The notes under the pieces are model-generated. The model saw only the letters and a program-made list of their open reading frames with translations. It searched no databases and had not been told where the DNA came from. DNA of 22,057 bases, taken from a virus (taxonomy: Duplodnaviria; Heunggongvirae; Uroviricota; Caudoviricetes). Positions 3,926 through 15,272 of this stretch are shown piece by piece; the stretch's first letter is position 1, and every line of letters begins with the position of its first letter. The stretch lies in the IMG/VR virus record IMGVR_UViG_2740892443_000002, one strand, 5' to 3'. The position numbers were made by a program, and so were the translations under genes.

Positions 3926-4779
3926 GCACCATCCTGAAATGGGCGGGAAATAAAACCGCCATTATGTCCGAACTGAAAAAACACCTTCCTGCTGGCCCGC
4001 GACTGGTTGAACCTTTCGCGGGTTCCTGTGCTGTGATGATGGAGACGGATTACCCCAGCTATCTGGTTGCGGATATTAATCCTGATTTAATCAACCTCTA
4101 TAAAAAGGTTGCCGCTGATTGTGAATCGTTTATATCTCGCGCCAGAGTTTTATTTGAGATCGCAAACAGGGAGGTGGCTTATTACAACATAAGGCAGGAG
4201 TTTAATTACTCCACTGAAATTACTGATTTCATGAAAGCGGTATATTTCCTGTATCTCAATCGTCACGGTTACCGTGGTTTATGTCGCTATAACAAGAGCG
4301 GGCATTTCAACATTCCCTACGGTAATTATAAAAATCCGTATTTCCCTGAAAAAGAAATTCGCGCATTTGCAGAAAAGGCCCAGCGAGCAACGTTTATCTG
4401 CGCCAGCTTTGATGAAACGCTGGCGATGTTGAAGGCGGGGGATGTGGTGTATTGCGATCCGCCGTATGACGGTACGTTTTCCGGCTATCACACTGACGGC
4501 TTCACTGAAGATGACCAGTATCACCTGGCATCTGTTCTTGAACATCGGTCATCAGAAGGACATCCGGTCATTGTTTCTAACAGTGACACATCCCTGATCC
4601 GTTCGCTGTATCGCAATTTTACTCACCACTACATCAAGGCAAAACGCAGCATCGGTGTGGCAGCTGGCGAGGGTAAATCAGCAACAGAAATCATTGCTGT
4701 TTCCGGGCCGCGCTGCTGGGTGGGATTTGATTATTCGCGTGGCGTGGATAGTTCTGCCGTGTACGGAGTACGTGCATGA
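3922..4779 (+). CDS. dam: DNA N6-adenine methyltransferase, Dam family (285 aa from ATG at 3922)
   Basis: N-terminal LKWAGNK and FAGSCAV (AdoMet-binding motif I region) and catalytic DPPY ([10 protein letters not shown]) motifs read in the translation. ATGA overlap with both upstream and downstream genes. Confidence 0.85.
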
Positions 4780-7190
4780 GTCATGCCGATATGAACAACT
4801 GCTGCGGCTTTAACGAGGCTGCCGCAGCATTCTCATGGAACAGCCCGAAAAAGGCCATTAACCCTTATCTGGACCCGGCGGAAGTTGCGCCGGTTTCTAC
4901 GCTTTCAAACCTGATCACTCTGTACGCTGCCGATAACGAGCAGGAACAGTTGCGCCGCGAGACACTGAGTGATCAGGTCTGGGAGCGTTATTTCTTTAAT
5001 GAATCACGTGATCCTGTCCAGCGCGAAATGGAGCAGGATAAGCTCATTAGCCGGGCAAAGCTGGCGCATGAGCAGCAGCGTTTTAATTCAGACATGGTCA
5101 TTCTGGCGGACGTCAACGCCAAGCCTTCCCATATCAGCAAGCCGCTGATGCAACGTATTGAATACTTCAGCAGCCTGGGCAGGCCAAAGGCTTATTCCCG
5201 CTATTTACGTGAGACGATTAAGCCATGTCTGGAACGACTGGAGCATGTACGCGACAGTCAGCTATCTGCATCTTTTCGCTTTATGGCAAGCCATGAAGGG
5301 CTGGACGGCCTGCTGATCCTGCCTGAAATGAGTCAGGATCAGGTGAAACGCCTGTCCACCCTGGTAGCTGCGCATATGAGTATGTGCCTTGATGCAGCTT
5401 GTGGTGATTTGTATGCCACCGATGACGTTAAGCCAGAAGAAATCCGCAAGACATGGGAAAAGGTGGCAGCGGAAACCCTGCGTCTGGATGTCATCCCACC
5501 TGCGTTTGAGCAACTCCGTCGGAAAAGAAACCGCCGTAAACCCGTGCCCTATGAACTCATTCCGGGTTCGCTGGCGCGTATGTTGTGCGCCGACTGGTGG
5601 TATCGGAAATTATGGAAGATGCGTTGCGAATGGCGGGAAGAGCAGTTGCGCGCTGTTTGCCTGGTCAGCAAAAAAGCATCTCCTTATGTCAGCTATGAAG
5701 CCGTGATGCATAAACGTGAGCAGCGCCGTAAGTCGCTGGAGTTTTTCCGTTCTCATGAACTGGTGAACGAAGACGGCGACACGCTGGACATGGAGGATGT
5801 GGTAAACGCCAGCAGCAGCAACCCTGCGCATCGCCGCAATGAGATGATGGCCTGTGTTAAAGGTCTGGAGCTTATCGCGGAAATGCGCGGTGACTGCGCC
5901 GTTTTCTACACTATCACCTGTCCGTCGCGTTTCCATTCCACGCTAAATAACGGCAGACCAAACCCGACCTGGACAAACGCGACGGTAAGACAAAGCAGCG
6001 ATTATCTGGTCGGCATGTTTGCTGCATTTCGTAAGGCGATGCACAAAGCCGGGTTGCGCTGGTATGGCGTGCGGGTGGCTGAGCCGCATCATGATGGCAC
6101 AGTTCACTGGCACCTGTTGTGTTTCATGCGCAAAAAAGACCGCCGTGCCATCACTGCATTACTGCGTAAGTTTGCCATCCGTGAAGACCGCGAGGAGCTG
6201 GGCAATAACACTGGGCCGCGCTTTAAGTCTGAGTTGATTAACCCGCGCAAAGGAACGCCGACAAGCTACATCGCGAAATATATCAGTAAGAACATTGACG
6301 GTCGTGGTCTGGCTGGCGAGATCAGCAAGGAAACGGGTAAATCTCTGCGTGATAACGCTGAATACGTGAATGCCTGGGCGTCTCTGCATCGTGTTCAGCA
6401 ATTCCGCTTCTTTGGTATTCCGGGGCGTCAGGCTTACCGTGAACTTCGCTTGCTGGCTGGTCAGGCGGCAAGGCAACAGGGTGACAAAAAAGCAGGTGCG
6501 CCGGTACTGGATAACCCGCGTCTTGATGCCATTCTGGCTGCTGCTGATGCTGGTTGTTTTGCCACCTACATCATGAAGCAGGGCGGCGTACTGGTTCCCC
6601 GTAAATATCACCTCATCAGAACCGCTTATGAAATCAACGAAGAGCCGACCGCCTATGGCGATCACGGCATTCGTATTTATGGCATCTGGTCACCCATTGC
6701 AGAGGGCAAGATCTGCACTCATGCAGTGAAGTGGAAAATGGTTCGTAAAGCCGTTGACGTTCAGGAGGCGGCAGCCGACCAGGGCGCTTGCGCCCCTTGG
6801 ACTCGTGGCAATAACTGTCCCCTTGCTGAAAATTTGAACCAACAGGAGAAAGATAAATCAGCAGATGGGGATACCAGAACTGATATTACCTGCATGGATG
6901 ACAAGGAATTGCACGATTACCTGCACAATATGAGCAAAAAAGAGCGCCGGGAACTGGCAGCAAGATTACGCCTGGTTAAACCGAAACGGCGTAAAGACTA
7001 CAAACAGCGAATTACAGAGCATCAGCGTCAGCAGCTCGTCTATGAACTGAAGTCCAGAGGATTTGATGGCAGCGAGAAAGAGGTCGATTTGCTCCTTCGC
7101 GGTGGCAGTATTCCGTCAGGAGCAGGCCTGCGTATCTTCTATCGGAACCAGCGTTTGCAGGAAGATGATAAGTGGCGGAACCTGTATTAA
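4776..7190 (+). CDS. A: Rolling-circle replication initiator, P2 gpA family (804 aa)
   Basis: Large protein at the position of P2/186 gene A, with a paired-tyrosine motif YIAKYISK (nt 6265-6288; Y-x3-Y) as in P2 gpA / phiX174 gpA-type nicking endonucleases. Confidence 0.85.
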
Positions 7191-7343: not shown

Positions 7344-7532
7344 ATGCAGGACTATTTTTTGGAGTCTTTGAAGCTCCAGCGCATTGATTTTTTTCTTAAG
7401 CTTGTAGCGGCTAGTGAGTGTAGTGATGAAGAGAAGGGGCTGGCTCTGCAGTGGGTTTCTGAATTGACTGATGAACTCATGGCAAAAATCAGAAGCCACG
7501 AATACAACCGCTCAATGGATGTCATCAGCTGA
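7344..7532 (+). CDS. Small protein (62 aa) downstream of the LexA box; possibly the 5' part of a split tum-like antirepressor gene
   Basis: ATG at 7344 preceded by AGGAGG. The longer ORF-track start at 7242 would run through the LexA box and is rejected. Relationship to 186 tum is inferred from position and from the adjacent DinI-like gene. Confidence 0.5.
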   Translation: MQDYFLESLKLQRIDFFLKLVAASECSDEEKGLALQWVSELTDELMAKIRSHEYNRSMDVIS

Positions 7533-7542
7533 GGTGACTTTT

Positions 7543-7776
7543 ATGCGCATTGAAATAATGATCGATAAAGAGCAGAAGATTAGCCAGTCTACCCTGGACG
7601 CTCTGGAGTCCGAGCTTTACCGCAACCTGCAACCCATCTATCCCAAGACAGCTATCCGCATCCGTAAAGGGTCGGCAAACGGCGTTGAGCTGAGTGGCTT
7701 AAAGCTTGATGAAGACAAAACGCGGGTGATGGAAATTATGCAGCAGGTTTGGGAAGACGACAGCTGGCTGCACTAA
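7543..7776 (+). CDS. DinI-family protein (77 aa from ATG at 7543)
   Basis: Translation MRIEIMIDKEQKISQSTLDALESELYRNLQPIYPK...DEDKTRVMEIMQQVWEDDSWL aligns along its length with remembered E. coli DinI (MRIEVTIAK...AIDALAGELSRRIQYAFPD...KEDKQRISEILQETWESADDWF). GAGGTG at 7531-7536 precedes the ATG. Confidence 0.85.
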   Translation: MRIEIMIDKEQKISQSTLDALESELYRNLQPIYPKTAIRIRKGSANGVELSGLKLDEDKTRVMEIMQQVWEDDSWLH

Positions 7777-7849: not shown

Positions 7850-8110
7850 ATGGGTAAAAAAGACAGTAATCACCAGATTATTTATCGGGGCCAGGTGCTG
7901 GAACGGTTTACCCCTGGCGGCTGGGTCTTCTTTCAACGCCCAAAGGAGTGTGGCGGAGGTTTTTGGTTGGGCCGCACCTATGAAGACTGCTTCTGGCTTG
8001 AGCTGGAATTCCCCGTTTCGCTATATGACGGCCTGGAGTTTTTGATGGAAGTCACCAGGGTAGAGCAGAGAAGTGATGAGGTTGACGCGAATTATTCCCT
8101 GTTTGATTAA
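7850..8110 (+). CDS. Hypothetical protein (86 aa from ATG at 7850)
   Basis: GAGG at 7838-7841 about 8 nt before ATG 7850; ORF-track start at 7799 is TTG. No recognisable family. Confidence 0.45.
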   Translation: MGKKDSNHQIIYRGQVLERFTPGGWVFFQRPKECGGGFWLGRTYEDCFWLELEFPVSLYDGLEFLMEVTRVEQRSDEVDANYSLFD

Positions 8111-8158
8111 AAATGTATTAGCTTATAATGGAATACTATTTTTGCAGGTGGGGGCGCA

Positions 8159-8770
8159 ATGGATTTAGTCTTTAAAATTCTGGCTTCGTTGGGTGGGGTG
8201 TCTTTTGTTGCATCTGGCATATTTGTTTGGATCGGGAAAGTTTATTTAGAAAGATATAAGTCGCGGCTAAACAAAGATATTGCTGAATTTCAATCACAAC
8301 TGAGTGCAACTAATGAAAGAATAAAGGCTAAGTTAGACAATTCTGTTTATGTAACGAAAGCGTATTTTGATAAGGAGTTATCAGCATATAGTCTCATTTG
8401 GAATTCGATGTTTGAAACCAGAGAAAGCGTGCTTAAGCTGAGGCCTGCGCTGGATCATTTTGACCCCAACGAACCATTTGAAGAGAGAAAATTTAGAAGG
8501 TTGAAAGTTTTTTTCGATGCATTTAATACTTTTGTTACAAGTGTTGAGTCTAACAAACCGTTCATCTCACCAGAGGTTTATATAATCTTGGACCGTTTCC
8601 GGAAGGAATGCTTTTCAGAGTCAATATCGTTTCAGCATGGCGATCCAGAATTTGACTGGCAAAATTATTGGAAAGAGGCAGAGTTGAATCGTACAACCAT
8701 CATCAAGCTTTTTGATGAGACGTGTGATGCAATTCGAGACAGGATGCACACATTAACTGTGGTTACGTAG
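8159..8770 (+). CDS. Membrane-anchored protein (203 aa): one N-terminal transmembrane helix, coiled-coil-like segment, C-terminal domain of unknown function; cargo gene, candidate defence function
   Basis: Hydrophobic stretch ILASLGGVSFVASGIFVWIG near the N-terminus; AT-rich codon usage unlike the flanking prophage genes; own -10 TATAAT at 8124-8129 and a downstream hairpin terminator at 8862-8889. Confidence 0.7.
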   Translation: MDLVFKILASLGGVSFVASGIFVWIGKVYLERYKSRLNKDIAEFQSQLSATNERIKAKLDNSVYVTKAYFDKELSAYSLIWNSMFETRESVLKLRPALDHFDPNEPFEERKFRRLKVFFDAFNTFVTSVESNKPFISPEVYIILDRFRKECFSESISFQHGDPEFDWQNYWKEAELNRTTIIKLFDETCDAIRDRMHTLTVVT

Positions 8771-8861
8771 TTTTCCAAAAAGTCTCGATGCCCGCTTTGG
8801 CGATTGTGCATGTCTATGCCGCATGAATCCGCATGATCGTTTGAGGATCGTTTTAGCTGAG

Positions 8862-8889
8862 GCCCGCTAGGAATGGCGGGCTTTTGCTT
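8862..8889 (+). terminator. Intrinsic terminator candidate: GCCCGC-TAGGAATG-GCGGGC followed by TTTTGCTT
   Basis: 6-bp GC stem (8862-8867 / 8876-8881), 8-nt loop, T-rich tail 8882-8889; lies about 90 nt downstream of the 8159-8770 gene. Confidence 0.45.
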
Positions 8890-8930
8890 ATGTCATGCAG
8901 ACGCATGAAAACCACTACATAAAGCGGGCA

Positions 8931-8949
8931 GGCGTGGCGGGGATACGAG
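8931..8949 (+). other. cos-like site: GGCGTGGCGGGGATACGAG, resembling the 19-nt cohesive end of P2/186
   Basis: First 13 nt match the remembered 186 cos end GGCGTGGCGGGGA(AAGCAT), and the following GCGCGCT also parallels the remembered P2 left end. Orientation points toward Q as in P2. Remembered sequences are unverified. Confidence 0.45.
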
Positions 8950-9059
8950 CGCGCGCTCATGGTTGAATTAATGAAATTATGGTGTTAAATAGGCTAGCTT
9001 TTTAAGTCGTGAATATTCAATTTTTCAACTCATTTTTTTCATAGGGAGGAGTAATTGAC

Positions 9060-9758
9060 ATGGTTATGTTAGTGGATGACTGTCCACGATGTGGATCACA
9101 AAAAATAGCGTTTGATGTTAATGGGCTGAATTGCACTAGGGTTTACAATGCATTGGGCGGGGGTAAAACATACGAGTACGAGGTCTATTGTGTTTGCCGA
9201 GAGTGTCATAAAACGACAATGTTTCTTTGCAGACCTTTAACGAAAAATAAAACTTTAGATGGCTATAATTGGGAAAGTGGAATATTCGGCTTAAAGGAAG
9301 TTGCAGAGGTTGTTAGGCCTATATCACCGGCAGACTTAGCAGTAGAGGAGCCACCAGAGTTCTTACCTGAGCATATCAATAGTGCATATGAGGAAGGGGC
9401 GAAATGTTTGGCTATAGGTTGTTATAATGCAGCAGCAACCATGTTTAGGCTTTGCCTTGATTATGCCACAAAAGGACTTCTTCCTGATGGGGAGCAAGGG
9501 CCTGCGCAAAAAATAAGGAGAAGCCTAGGGTTAAGAATGGAGTGGTTATTTGATAATCATCTACTGCCTGAAGCTTTAAGGGAACTAGCTGAATGCGTTA
9601 AAGATGACGGAAATGATGGAGCGCATGAAGGTATTTTGGATAAAGCTGCTGCTGAGGATCTTGAAGATTTTACCTATCTTTTTTTAGAACGGCTTTACAC
9701 TGAACCTCAACGCCTTATCGAAGCCAAGACAAGGCGTGAACAAAGAAGAAACAAATAA
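9060..9758 (+). CDS. Zinc-ribbon protein with DUF4145/HEPN-like C-terminal domain (232 aa); cargo gene between cos and portal, candidate defence/abortive-infection effector
   Basis: N-terminal CPRCG...CVCRECH (C4 ribbon); C-terminal helical region ending ...LRELAECVKDDGNDGAHEG... resembles the GN-x-AH core that I recall for DUF4145. GGGAGGAG precedes the ATG; candidate promoter -35 TTGAAT 8963-8968 with TG-extended -10 TAAATA 8986-8991. AT-rich. Stop is 8 bp from the convergent Q stop. Confidence 0.7.
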   Translation: MVMLVDDCPRCGSQKIAFDVNGLNCTRVYNALGGGKTYEYEVYCVCRECHKTTMFLCRPLTKNKTLDGYNWESGIFGLKEVAEVVRPISPADLAVEEPPEFLPEHINSAYEEGAKCLAIGCYNAAATMFRLCLDYATKGLLPDGEQGPAQKIRRSLGLRMEWLFDNHLLPEALRELAECVKDDGNDGAHEGILDKAAAEDLEDFTYLFLERLYTEPQRLIEAKTRREQRRNK

Positions 9759-9766
9759 GTTCGGAA

Positions 9767-10801
9767 TTATTCTTCTGAAAGAATATAGGGCGTAAATTTA
9801 ATCACTTCTTCGCCCAGCCAGTCGTTCAGCTCTTGTAGCCTTTTTTGCAAGGGCGTTAATTCATTACGTACAAATACGCGACTGGCCTTCTCCACATCCC
9901 CAAACCCCCCGACATTATTAGGCATTATCCCCATCATTTGTGGCGGCACACGATGCGCCGCCATCATGTCGTCCCGGCTCACGTTCTTGATATTCAGGAA
10001 CTCATCCTTCGCCGCCACTTCTGACAACGGGATAATCTGAAGCCCGTCCTTTTTACCGTTAGGCGAGTACATAAACAGGTTACGGAAGTTACCAGGACCT
10101 TTGGCGCTTTTCATCGCATTGCGGAGGTTGTTCACATCTTCCTGGTTCTGCGCTGCATCGGTCATGTACATGATGAAGCCTGCATGACTGCCGTTAATGT
10201 AATACTTGCGGCGGAACAGCGTGGCGGACTCGTTGAGCAGAGCTGACGGAATGGCAGAAAGATAACCAGGCAGGCCGTAGATCTCCTGGTTGATGTCCGG
10301 TTCCATCAGATGAAAAATGTTGCATTTCGTGAACTGATACGGCTGCGTAGTCATGCCGTATTGCACAAACCAGTAGGTATCAAGGTCTAACCCGCGTCGG
10401 GTGTATTTTGCCAGTGCAGGCTCAAGGGCGATAACTTCACCGAAGCGGTTCGTGCGTTTCTCCAGGTAGGCGTTACCAAAAACCAGATAGTCCTGTACAA
10501 AACGCGAAAAAGCCTGCTGGCTGAGCAGCGGGTGAGGGATGTAGGTGCTGGTCAGAATGTTGCACTTCACTGCAATCGGTGAGCTGTGATGCACGGCGGC
10601 GCGGAAGGTTCGCGCCAGTCCGTCGAAACTCACAGGCGGCTCGTACCAACGATCCATCTGTACGCATTCCACATAGTCCAGCAGTTCGCGGCGGTCCAGA
10701 ACAGGAACGGGATCACCGAAGCTGAATGCTTCGGCTGAAGTCTGGCTTTTATGCTGGATCTGTTTCGTCGACGCAGCGCGGTTCTTCTTACTCTTTCCCA
10801 T
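9767..10801 (-). CDS. Q: Portal protein, P2 gpQ family (344 aa from ATG at 10799-10801)
   Basis: Size identical to P2 Q (344 aa), position and orientation next to cos and the large terminase gene as in P2; start overlaps the P stop (TGATG). Confidence 0.85.
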   Translation of the reverse strand: MGKSKKNRAASTKQIQHKSQTSAEAFSFGDPVPVLDRRELLDYVECVQMDRWYEPPVSFDGLARTFRAAVHHSSPIAVKCNILTSTYIPHPLLSQQAFSRFVQDYLVFGNAYLEKRTNRFGEVIALEPALAKYTRRGLDLDTYWFVQYGMTTQPYQFTKCNIFHLMEPDINQEIYGLPGYLSAIPSALLNESATLFRRKYYINGSHAGFIMYMTDAAQNQEDVNNLRNAMKSAKGPGNFRNLFMYSPNGKKDGLQIIPLSEVAAKDEFLNIKNVSRDDMMAAHRVPPQMMGIMPNNVGGFGDVEKASRVFVRNELTPLQKRLQELNDWLGEEVIKFTPYILSEE

Positions 10802-12567
10802 CAAAAAATCTCCACAATATTGCTGGTATTGGCGGACTCGCCCTGCAGCGGTTCGTTAAACAGTGCGTGCATTGTTGCCCAGGCCAGATCGGCATGGCTG
10901 GCTTCTTCGCTGCGGCTGGCTTCATAGGTCGGGCGGTTGCCACTGGCAGTGGTAGCGCGACGGATTGCCATAAATGACTGCGCAATGTCGGTGTGCCCGG
11001 CGTCAAACTCCAGACGGCGGTGGCTGATAATGTCGTAGGCCTTGAGTACCAGGGCGTTTTTAACGTTGGGGTTATAGACAAACTCCCTGACGGCAGGAAA
11101 AAACGCTTTCACGTTCTCGTAAACCCCGTGACCGACGCCGGTCGAGTCGATACCGATATAGGTCACGTTATACTGTTCGGTCAGTTTTTTGATGGCGTCA
11201 GCCTGGGCGCGGAAGTCCATCCCGCGCCACTGGTGACGCTCAAGAATGCGGAACTTACCACCCGGCACGGCTGGCGGAGCCACCACCACGCATCCGGCAC
11301 TGTCGCCGTTCTGCGTACCTTTTGCCGGGTCATAACCGATCCACACTTCGCGCCAGCCAAACGGGCGCAGGGCCAGTGCATGAAAGTCGGTCCAGACTTC
11401 CCAGCTGTCCACCATGCACGCCTGCAGTTCGCTGAGCGGGAACACGGACGCGAGATCGTCCACGAACTCGCACATCAGCAGGTTCTGGTATTCGTCCGGG
11501 CTGTACTCCATGCGCAGCTGGTCGAGGTCGAACAGGTTACAGCCGCCGCGCACCGCATCTTCCACGGTGACTATCTGGCGGTATTGCCCGTCTGCGCACA
11601 GTAGGCCGGGGGCCAGATTGCTGTGGGACAGGTCGATGTCCACCTTGTCAGCTTTGTTGCGTCCACGGTTGAACAGCGCACCGGACCAGAACGGATAAGC
11701 ACTGTGGGTCAGGCTGGATGGCGTGGAAAAATAGGTTTGTCGCCATTTCTTGTGAATAGCCATACCGGAAGCCACTTTGCGCAACTCCTGGAATTTCGGT
11801 ATCCAGAAATATTCATCCAGATACAGGTTGCCGTGGTAACTCTGCGCCGTGCGGGCATTGGTGCCGAGGAAGTAAAGCGTGGCCCCGTTAGGAAGCACCA
11901 TCGGATCGCCTTTCAGCTCCACCTCGACTTCTTTGGCGAAGTCGATGATGTACTGCTTAAAGACGTGAGCCTGTGCCTTACTGGCAGAAAGGAAAATCTG
12001 GTTACGTCCGGTAAGCAGGGCGTCAATCAGGGCTTCACGGGCAAAGTAAAAGGTCGCGCCGATCTGGCGTGACTTCAGCAGGTTGCGGATGCGGTTGGTT
12101 TTTCCGGCTTCCCACCAGTGGCGCTGGTAGTTGAACATGGAGGAATGGAAGATTTCTTCCAGTTTCTCTATCTGTTCATCGGTGAAAACATTCTTTTCCG
12201 GCTGACGGCGCGGGCCTTTGTTGCGGTTGGCGACGTTAGGGTTTAAGTCGGCTTCGTTACCGCCATTGTTAAACTTGCCGATCCGCGCGTGGCGCTCCGA
12301 CTGGCGCGCCAGCAGGTCAATTTCTTTGAAATCTTTCCCTTCTTTGTGCTCCTTCATAATGAGCTGGCAGTAACGTGCGGCGGTGGTGAGCTGCATCTGA
12401 TCCAGCGGCCCATAGTCACCCCACTTGTCGCGTTTCTTCCAGCTGTGAACGGTTGCAACTTTCTCGCCCAGCATTTCAGCAATGCGGGCTACGCGGTATC
12501 CCTGAAAGTACAGCAGCATGGCCTGCCGACGGGGATCGAGATCTGCGGGTGTCAGTGTGGTGTTCAT
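10801..12567 (-). CDS. P: Terminase large (ATPase) subunit, P2 gpP family (588 aa)
   Basis: Size (P2 P is ~590 aa) and position, co-oriented with Q and divergent from O, as in the P2 packaging module. Confidence 0.85.
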   Translation of the reverse strand: MNTTLTPADLDPRRQAMLLYFQGYRVARIAEMLGEKVATVHSWKKRDKWGDYGPLDQMQLTTAARYCQLIMKEHKEGKDFKEIDLLARQSERHARIGKFNNGGNEADLNPNVANRNKGPRRQPEKNVFTDEQIEKLEEIFHSSMFNYQRHWWEAGKTNRIRNLLKSRQIGATFYFAREALIDALLTGRNQIFLSASKAQAHVFKQYIIDFAKEVEVELKGDPMVLPNGATLYFLGTNARTAQSYHGNLYLDEYFWIPKFQELRKVASGMAIHKKWRQTYFSTPSSLTHSAYPFWSGALFNRGRNKADKVDIDLSHSNLAPGLLCADGQYRQIVTVEDAVRGGCNLFDLDQLRMEYSPDEYQNLLMCEFVDDLASVFPLSELQACMVDSWEVWTDFHALALRPFGWREVWIGYDPAKGTQNGDSAGCVVVAPPAVPGGKFRILERHQWRGMDFRAQADAIKKLTEQYNVTYIGIDSTGVGHGVYENVKAFFPAVREFVYNPNVKNALVLKAYDIISHRRLEFDAGHTDIAQSFMAIRRATTASGNRPTYEASRSEEASHADLAWATMHALFNEPLQGESANTSNIVEIF

Positions 12568-14621: not shown

Positions 14622-15272
14622 ATGAGCCTGAGTCCCGCACGGCAGCATCGCCTGCGCGTTCAGGCTGAACAGGCCGCTCGCGAGGGTGGCAGTGTTCGCC
14701 ACGCGTCGGGCTATGACCTGATGCTGCTGCAACTGGCGGAAGACCGTCGCCGTCTCAAGGGCGTTCAGTCCACGGTAAAAAAAGCGGAAATCAAGGTGGA
14801 GCTGCTGCCGAAATATGCTGCCTGGGCGGAGGGCGTTCTGGCTGCCGGAGGCGCTCAACAGGATGACGTGCTGATGTACGTGATGCTGTGGCGCATTGAT
14901 GCCGGAGATTATGCCGGGGCGCTGGAGATCGGGCGTCATGCCCTGCGTCATGGCTGGGTGATGCCGCTGGGTAACCGCAACGTGCAGACCGTGCTGGCAG
15001 AGGAAATGGCAGACGCGGCGCAGAGCGCAATGCTTGCCGCCACCGGCTTTGATGCCGATCTGTTGCTGCAGACGCTGGAGCTGACAGACGGTCTGGATAT
15101 GCCGGACCAGTCACGGGCGCGTCTGCATAAAGCGATTGGCGCTGTCCTGTGTGAAAGCAACCCGGCTTCCGCCCTTAATCATCTCAACCATGCGTTACAG
15201 CTCGATCCCCGCTGTGGCGTGAAAAAAGACAAACAGCAGCTGGAGCGCAGACTGCGCAATGACAGCCGCTGA
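14622..15272 (+). CDS. M: Terminase small/endonuclease subunit, P2 gpM family (216 aa)
   Basis: Position directly after N and size class fit P2 gene M; start 3 nt after the N stop. Confidence 0.75.
   Translation: MSLSPARQHRLRVQAEQAAREGGSVRHASGYDLMLLQLAEDRRRLKGVQSTVKKAEIKVELLPKYAAWAEGVLAAGGAQQDDVLMYVMLWRIDAGDYAGALEIGRHALRHGWVMPLGNRNVQTVLAEEMADAAQSAMLAATGFDADLLLQTLELTDGLDMPDQSRARLHKAIGAVLCESNPASALNHLNHALQLDPRCGVKKDKQQLERRLRNDSR

Follow-up and report, generated by a model that had tools for sequence, protein, structure and literature searches.

Background

Phages P2 and 186 and the satellite P4 share a cohesive-end site (cos) with a 19-nt 5' overhang that starts GGCG[A/T]GGCGGGGA and ends AAGCAC or AAGCAT. 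The left end of the P2 record reads GGCGAGGCGGGGAAAGCAC followed by TGCGCGC, with bases 1-19 annotated as cosL, and the left end of the 186 record reads GGCGTGGCGGGGAAAGCAT, also followed by TGCGCGC, with bases 1-19 annotated as cos. A 55-bp cos core is credited to Ziermann and Calendar 1990 in a passage of PMC5694545.

Rousset et al. 2022 describe the interval between gpA and gpQ, next to cos, as a hotspot for defence genes and count 1650 arrangements among 18,150 loci (PMC9122126). The P4 hotspot is reported there to abut cos likewise, and the entries of Table S5 of the same study include DUF4145 arrangements, e.g. 'hypothetical + DinI + DUF2971 + DUF4145'. The same gpA-gpQ hotspot figures in Vassallo et al. 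2022 (PMC9519451). For phiCTX, a P2-like phage of Pseudomonas, the position of the ctx gene is cited in a passage of PMC5694545 as a suggested hotspot for foreign genes.

For the mitomycin-inducible E. coli HS phage 1 the cos was determined as 5'-GGCGTGGCGGGGATACGAG-3' by read-start analysis and PhageTerm, and was placed at NC_009800 926016-926034 (PMC8008629; Zünd et al. 2021, Microbiome 9:77, Supplementary Table 4). Cartapus, which is prophage 4 of E. coli LF82 (OV696611 / NC_070909), gives DNase-protected genomes at about 3.3e5 per mL, and neither plaques nor myovirus particles were seen and no indicator host was found (PMC9928086). Bases 1-59 of the Cartapus record are annotated as 'putative cos site, homologous to the cos of P2 phage'.

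The DNA analysed in this work, referred to below as the window, is a single stretch of 22,057 nucleotides from the IMG/VR virus record IMGVR_UViG_2740892443_000002. The first-pass annotation of its letters had pointed to a cos-like sequence separated from the portal gene by inserted cargo, and the site and its surroundings were followed up by comparison with the systems described above.

Results

Gene order around the site

The window has the order gpA, DinI-like gene, cargo, cos, cargo, Q and P, which is also the order in Fels-2, HS phage 1 and Cartapus. The gpA replication gene (4776-7190) is an intact ORF of the expected Pfam family, and the DinI-like gene (7471-7776, + strand) follows downstream of it. 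Beyond cos lie the portal gene, homologous to P2 gpQ (9767-10804, - strand; Pfam Phage_portal; 60.6 % identical to P2 gpQ), the gene for the large (ATPase) terminase subunit, homologous to P2 gpP (10801-12567, - strand; Pfam Terminase_6N, Terminase_6C and Terminase_5), and the gene for the small (endonuclease) terminase subunit, homologous to P2 gpM (14622-15272, + strand), whose match in HS phage 1 is annotated 'terminase endonuclease subunit'. The cos-like sequence is thus found between the replication/accessory region and the divergent Q-P / O-N-M packaging genes, with the ORFs of the cognate terminase intact, and it shares with the P2/186/P4 cos a location between early or accessory genes and Q-P.

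The DinI-family gene at 7471-7776 (+ strand) occupies the place of tum in 186, and a 191-aa ORF (1426-2001, - strand) stands at the repressor position. Together these two genes suggest a 186-like SOS-inducible switch and not the non-inducible P2 type.

A P2/186-type cohesive-end sequence at 8931-8949

Direct reading of the letters gives GGCGTGGCGGGGATACGAG at 8931-8949 (+ strand), continued by CGCGCGCTCATGG, and the first 7 bases 3' of the 19-mer are CGCGCGC. The cos-like sequence noticed in the first pass is therefore present at 8931-8949, the string quoted there, GCGCGCTCATGG, beginning one base later, and the P2 and 186 cos sequences given for comparison proved right when checked against the records of both phages. 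The 19-mer opens with GGCG[A/T]GGCGGGG, as expected of a 19-nt cohesive end of this type, and is identical to 186 at 15/19 bases, to P2 at 14/19 and to P4 at 14/19. Its bases 1-13 are those of 186 and the differences concern four of the six bases at positions 14-19; the last six bases of the window segment are TACGAG, in contrast to AAGCAC or AAGCAT in P2, 186 and P4. The earlier statement that positions 14-19 differ from the consensus stands for four positions (against 186) but not for all six. A 16-base core pattern had one exact match in the 22-kb window, at 8931, and a second match with 2 mismatches, at the end of an ORF upstream of gpA, was within chance expectation.

For P2, 186 and P4 the right end was joined to the left end before alignment to the window. 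The left flank could be aligned as well, with GCATGAAAACC...AAAGCGGGCA in the window against GCATTAAAACC...AAG[C/T]GGGC[G/A] in P2 and 186; common to the window, P2, 186 and P4 are GCAT.AAAACC...AAG.GGGC[G/A] on the left and GCGCGC on the right. The counterpart of the P2/P4 55-bp cos core lies at 8902-8956 (29 + 19 + 7 bp) and is identical to P2 at 41/55 positions, to 186 at 43/55 and to P4 at 42/55. P2 and P4 agree at 52/55 positions over the same span and their homology stops right after GCGCGC, as it does in the window; this P2-P4 span of 29 + 19 + 7 = 55 bp is in agreement with the '55-bp core' named in the passage of PMC5694545. Since the left flank aligns as well and the same block is present in 1279 of 5426 complete E. 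coli genomes, the match between the window and the P2/186 cos is, as judged by sequence comparison, a matter of homology and not of chance. The alignment with the genome termini bears out the first reading of this stretch as a P2/186-type cos of a P2-family prophage.

The segment 8931-8949 was assigned as the 19-nt cohesive-end segment by its positional homology to P2 cosL and 186 cos and its identity to the HS phage 1 cos. The nicks would accordingly be expected at 8930/8931 on the top strand and at 8949/8950 on the bottom strand, to give the 5' overhang GGCGTGGCGGGGATACGAG.

The conserved cos island

Relatives were taken from IMG/VR as 80 loci whose portal is at least 92 % identical to that of the window. 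The motif was found in 74 of them, and in most of the 6 loci without a motif match the flanking DNA is too short. All 74 motif-bearing loci share the first 18 bases, the identical 19-mer is present in 71, and the remaining 3 have T for the final G. Immediately 3' of the 19-mer CGCGC is found in 71 of the 74 relatives and TGCGC in 3, the T-ending ones, and beyond these bases the sequences diverge completely.

Per-column identity in 71 unique related sequences, together with the limits of BLAST matches, delimits a conserved cos island at 8806-8956. Of its 151 bp, 125 precede the top-strand nick, 19 make up the cohesive-end segment and 7 follow that segment. Identity is about 0.9-1.0 from 8806 onwards and collapses after 8956; columns 8931-8948 are invariant and column 8949 stands at 0.96. 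The BLAST matches in the 1279 E. coli genomes and in 78 phage records span only about 8806-8956/8962. Conservation is also lost to the left of 8806, and the island is flanked by variable DNA on both sides.

Four YGCAT repeats (+ strand) are located in the left arm of the island. Three of them, at 8807-8811, 8820-8824 and 8830-8834, are placed at -124, -111 and -101 from the nick, and the fourth, at 8902-8906, is placed at -29, where the 55-bp core starts. The offsets -124, -111, -101 and -29 are common to the window, HS phage 1, 186 and P4, and those of P2 are -123, -111, -101 and -29, while the DNA between the repeats is not conserved across these five. The columns of the three left-hand repeats (8807-8834) are conserved at about 100 % among the relatives. 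Counted over the 125 bp, GCATG/CATGC has 5 occurrences where 0.28 would be expected (Poisson P about 1e-5). The array was defined in this work by comparing P2, 186 and P4, not from published descriptions. The YGCAT repeats are presumed, on the model of the R sites in lambda cosB, to be recognition repeats to which the terminase would bind.

The island also contains a G+C-rich hairpin followed by UUUU (8859-8885, + strand), a candidate intrinsic terminator. Its predicted RNA fold has an energy of -22.9 kcal/mol (z = -4.08; 0 of 200 shuffled sequences were equally stable). The stem columns are conserved among the relatives and the loop columns 8868, 8871 and 8873 vary; likewise the counterpart in HS phage 1 keeps the stem and has a different loop. 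The hairpin was absent from the list produced by a simple terminator scan. The rightward gpA/DinI/cargo transcript probably ends at this hairpin.

The 7 bases that lead up to each nick, written 5' to 3' on each strand, are GCGGGCA (top) and GCGCGCG (bottom) in the window, GCGGGCG and GCGCGCA in P2, and GCGGGCG and GCGCGCG in P4. These half-sites would make a two-fold element GCG[G/C]GC[G/A] before each cut, and such an element would explain why conservation on the portal side stops at exactly 7 bp. The roles given here to the repeats and to the 7-bp half-site are read from conservation and should be taken as presumptive.

The TACGAG overhang and the terminase

The 19-mer of the window was confirmed at NC_009800 926016-926034 in the HS record. 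The window gpP is 100 %, gpM 99.1 % and the portal 93 % identical to the HS phage 1 proteins. The cos islands of the two are identical at 132/151 bp, including all of the last 55 bp, and the 19 differences fall in the left arm. In HS phage 1 cargo is likewise inserted between cos and portal (a 1392-bp ORF), but the cargo differs from that of the window on both sides of cos.

Against P2, the terminase subunits of the window are 42.5 % (gpM) and 63.6 % (gpP) identical. The low identity of both indicates that the overhang variant goes with a diverged terminase, and the TACGAG overhang reads as a lineage-specific cos class and not as a product of decay. The first-pass suggestion that positions 14-19 might mark a diverged or non-functional cos does not fit the read-mapped cohesive end of HS phage 1, which is the identical 19-mer, nor the constancy of the first 18 bases in all 74 related loci with the motif.

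P4-like satellites of the TACGAG class were looked for among 120 IMG/VR loci with the 19-mer, none of which (0/120) contained psu, sid, delta or alpha. When species genomes were scanned by way of Psu, 6 satellite loci were obtained, a small sample, and none was of the TACGAG class. The overhangs of these six Psu-encoding satellites end in AAAGCAC, AGAGCAT or ATAGCAT and are followed by TGCG[C/T]; the right flank of cos is TGCGCGC in 5 of the 6 and TGCGTCC in a Photorhabdus locus, and the DNA beyond it is unrelated.

Cargo slots on both sides of cos

From the 3' edge of cos to the portal stop codon the window has 817 bp, compared with 167 bp for P2 and 176 bp for 186, and the contrast drawn in the first pass, about 820 against about 150 bp, was essentially right. 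It was also right that a cargo gene separates cos from the portal gene: the gene at 9060-9758 sits where P2 and 186 have about 170 bp with only a terminator. The cargo genes of P2 (old and tin) are on the other side of cos from this one.

What did not hold is the implied rarity of a long gap. In the 74 relatives the cos-to-Q distance ranges from 183 to 3524 bp (median 1692 bp, 47 distinct lengths) and exceeds 500 bp in 72; only two loci look empty, with about 185 bp and a terminator-like hairpin. The 817-bp gap with one gene is typical among the relatives.

The homology of the relatives ends at about 8956, and the variable cargo slot, which runs from cos to the stop codon of the portal gene, was delimited as 8957-9766. 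In tblastn the matches of related portals extend no further than residue 340-345 (of 345), and the right boundary of the slot seems to be located within the last few portal codons (window 9767-9780). Just 8 bp separate the stop codons of the cargo gene and of the portal gene, and no obvious terminator is seen in this interval. The variable region on the gpA side of cos contains a cargo gene of 203 aa (8159-8770, + strand; phrog_26391), whose product has no Pfam or PADLOC family.

Only 25 of the 1279 E. coli genomes with the cos block carry the whole 8100-9900 segment. In E. coli N39, 8100-8955 is shared at 99.7 % and the right-hand cargo is different beyond 8955. As the left cargo and cos are kept there and the DNA to the right is different, the two slots exchange independently. 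The portal-side slot starts exactly 7 bp past the overhang, as in satellite P4, which fits cassette exchange using the shared cos core as one recombination arm.

The DUF4145 cargo gene

PD-T7-4 corresponds to RAZR, a ring-activated zinc-finger RNase composed of a zinc finger and a DUF4145/HEPN domain (PMC13017515). RAZR is activated by ring-shaped phage proteins (Gp77 and portals, including T7-type ones), and both R146 and H154 are needed for defence (PMC13017515).

The cargo gene at 9060-9758 (+ strand, convergent with the portal gene) encodes a protein of 232 aa that combines a Cys4 zinc ribbon with a DUF4145 (HEPN-like) domain. The protein matches Pfam DUF4145 at 4.5e-7 (30.3 bits; cut-off 23.1) and PHROG 1305 at 9.5e-53, and shows a weak match to PADLOC PD-T7-4 (26 bits, 1.2e-6); all 25 aligned members of its family match the PD-T7-4 model, the best at 3.6e-11. 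C8-x2-C11 and C46-x2-C49 are invariant in 25 homologues, which gives the N-terminal Cys4 zinc ribbon expected of RAZR, and the order of domains, with the DUF4145/HEPN-like part C-terminal, appears to be that of RAZR. Within the motif K181-DDGNDGA-H189, K181 and G184-N-D-G-A-H189 are invariant in the same 25 homologues. A His is present as H189 (H154 in RAZR), but at the position where DUF4145 proteins usually have their catalytic Arg (R146 in RAZR) the cargo family has Lys (K181), eight residues before H189, the equivalence being drawn from the spacing. Given the weak PD-T7-4 match and the invariant Lys where RAZR has Arg, the cargo protein appears to be only distantly related to RAZR, and its RNase chemistry is putative. 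Searches of PDB sequences with the cargo protein and with the 25-member profile returned nothing meaningful, and a single-sequence structure model of the protein was of low confidence (pLDDT 39.4).

The protein is 100 % identical in Cartapus, where it is annotated as a DUF4145 protein. Cartapus is the only deposited phage with a close copy, and distant homologues are present in Burkholderia, Stx and Gordonia phages. The one in Gordonia phage Meyran (145-759; 27 % identity) is gene 1 and so again lies at a genome end, in an unrelated actinophage. A consensus scan of the + strand between cos and the cargo start codon revealed no sigma-70 promoter.

The cargo protein might be a working sensor of the RAZR type, that is a zinc-ribbon/HEPN-like RNase switched on by portal-sized rings and using Lys in place of the catalytic Arg; this is an unlikely proposal. 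If it were true, the phage would have to silence the sensor gene while growing lytically itself, or else possess a portal that the sensor fails to recognise, and the locus would be a natural test case for how a competitor's portal is told from that of the resident phage.

Discussion

Working reading of the site

It is concluded with high confidence that a Fels-2-like (Elveevirus, Peduoviridae) P2-family prophage, near-identical to the LF82 phage Cartapus, has its working cohesive-end site at 8931-8949. Between the window and Cartapus there is one mismatch in 8899-9883, at base 8901, and there are scattered substitutions in the portal and terminase region, 95 in 3 kb. The annotated bases 1-59 of Cartapus correspond to window 8899-8957; the record starts 32 bp to the left of the nick proposed here and not at the nick.

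In the proposed mechanism gpM (14622-15272) and gpP (10801-12567) would recognise the 151-bp island 8806-8956 through the four YGCAT repeats, which stand at set distances from the nick on its gpA side, with the short two-fold element GCG[G/C]GC[G/A] directly 5' of each nick, and the staggered nicks at 8930/8931 and 8949/8950 would then leave 19-nt 5' overhangs. On the portal side only 7 bp past the overhang would be constrained, so the interval running from 8957 up to the end of Q would be free to vary and could act as a cargo slot. Cleavage in this particular prophage is presumed from its sequence and from that of its relatives.

Alternatives to a working cos

The differences from 186 at 4 of the last 6 bases and from P2 at 5/19, together with the low virion output of Cartapus, could be taken to mean that the site is a decayed remnant, drifted from the P2/186 consensus at positions 14-19, and that the prophage can no longer cut its DNA. 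This is very improbable. An inducible phage whose large terminase subunit is identical has had its cos mapped to this very 19-mer, and 18 bases that stay invariant in 74 relatives despite wholly different flanks speak of purifying selection and not of drift. The parallel divergence of the terminase subunits from P2 (gpM 42.5 %) is what would be expected of a distinct specificity class, and Q, P, O, N and M are all intact open reading frames. That the real cos is elsewhere in the prophage and the site at 8931 a look-alike is hardly conceivable. Within the window the core pattern is matched exactly at 8931 and nowhere else, and the site is syntenic, between gpA-side genes and Q-P, with those of P2, 186, Fels-2, HS phage 1 and phiCTX; no support for another location was found in the scan, which covered the 22057-nt window, the tail and lysis half lying beyond 22057. 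A chance match was also considered as the explanation of the cos-like sequence and was rejected on the grounds of flank homology and conservation.

The extent of the island could have a different cause, namely that it is kept mainly for a terminator or another regulatory element and that packaging needs only the 19-mer and its immediate flanks. The strong hairpin with a conserved stem and a U-run at 8859-8885 is in favour of it, but the YGCAT offsets are the same in P2, 186 and satellite P4 despite different intervening sequence and different local genes, and P4, without genes in common with P2, must be packaged by the P2 terminase (PMC9122126). As an account of the whole island it has little chance of being correct. 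A terminator within the island rather complements the explanation by terminase recognition, as terminator and recognition repeats can coexist. The working cos in a 151-bp recognition island remains the preferred explanation.

Packaging order

It had further been proposed in the first pass that packaging begins at the portal-side end, with the gene at 9060-9758 as the first DNA to enter the head. The chances of this are about even. Electron microscopy by Chattoraj and Inman in 1974 reportedly placed one specific end of P2, 186 and P4 DNA at the tail, and if that tail-attached end is the conventional right end, then the Q-side end would enter first. The terminase-binding repeats of lambda (cosB) are on the side that is packaged first; the repeat array of the window is on the gpA side of the nick, and by analogy with lambda the gpA-side end would enter first and the cos-Q cargo last. 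The literature search found no statement on the packaging polarity of P2, 186 or P4.

Implications

For genome annotation, the mature DNA ends of the prophage may be placed at 8931 and 8949, on the basis of the comparisons above, and prophages with a TACGAG cos should not be scored as packaging-defective. What P2-family terminases appear to need is, on one side of the overhang, 125 bp in which four YGCAT repeats have fixed places and, on the other, only 7 bp. With no more than 7 bp needed on the portal side, accessory genes can abut cos there, as they do in phiCTX, Fels-2, HS phage 1 and satellite P4.

Comparison with known systems

The cos itself, the gpA-gpQ hotspot and the presence of DUF4145 genes in that hotspot are already in the literature or in database records, and the current understanding is unchanged by this work. 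The window slot at 8957-9766 is a case of the P2 gpA-gpQ hotspot, as it lies between gpA and gpQ, adjoins cos and is hypervariable in content. The same cos-portal slot holds a 1698-bp ORF in Fels-2. In phiCTX cosL is followed by one accessory gene, the rightward ctx (362-1222), then by terminators and the convergent portal gene (1417-2469), a layout like that of the window, but the phage belongs to a different genus, its cos is annotated with 21 nt and its cargo is a toxin and not a DUF4145 protein. The Rousset and Vassallo studies appear to treat the gpA-gpQ interval as one locus, whereas in the window and its relatives it is split by the 151-bp cos island. The sole refinement offered here is the division of the hotspot into two slots, one on either side of this island.
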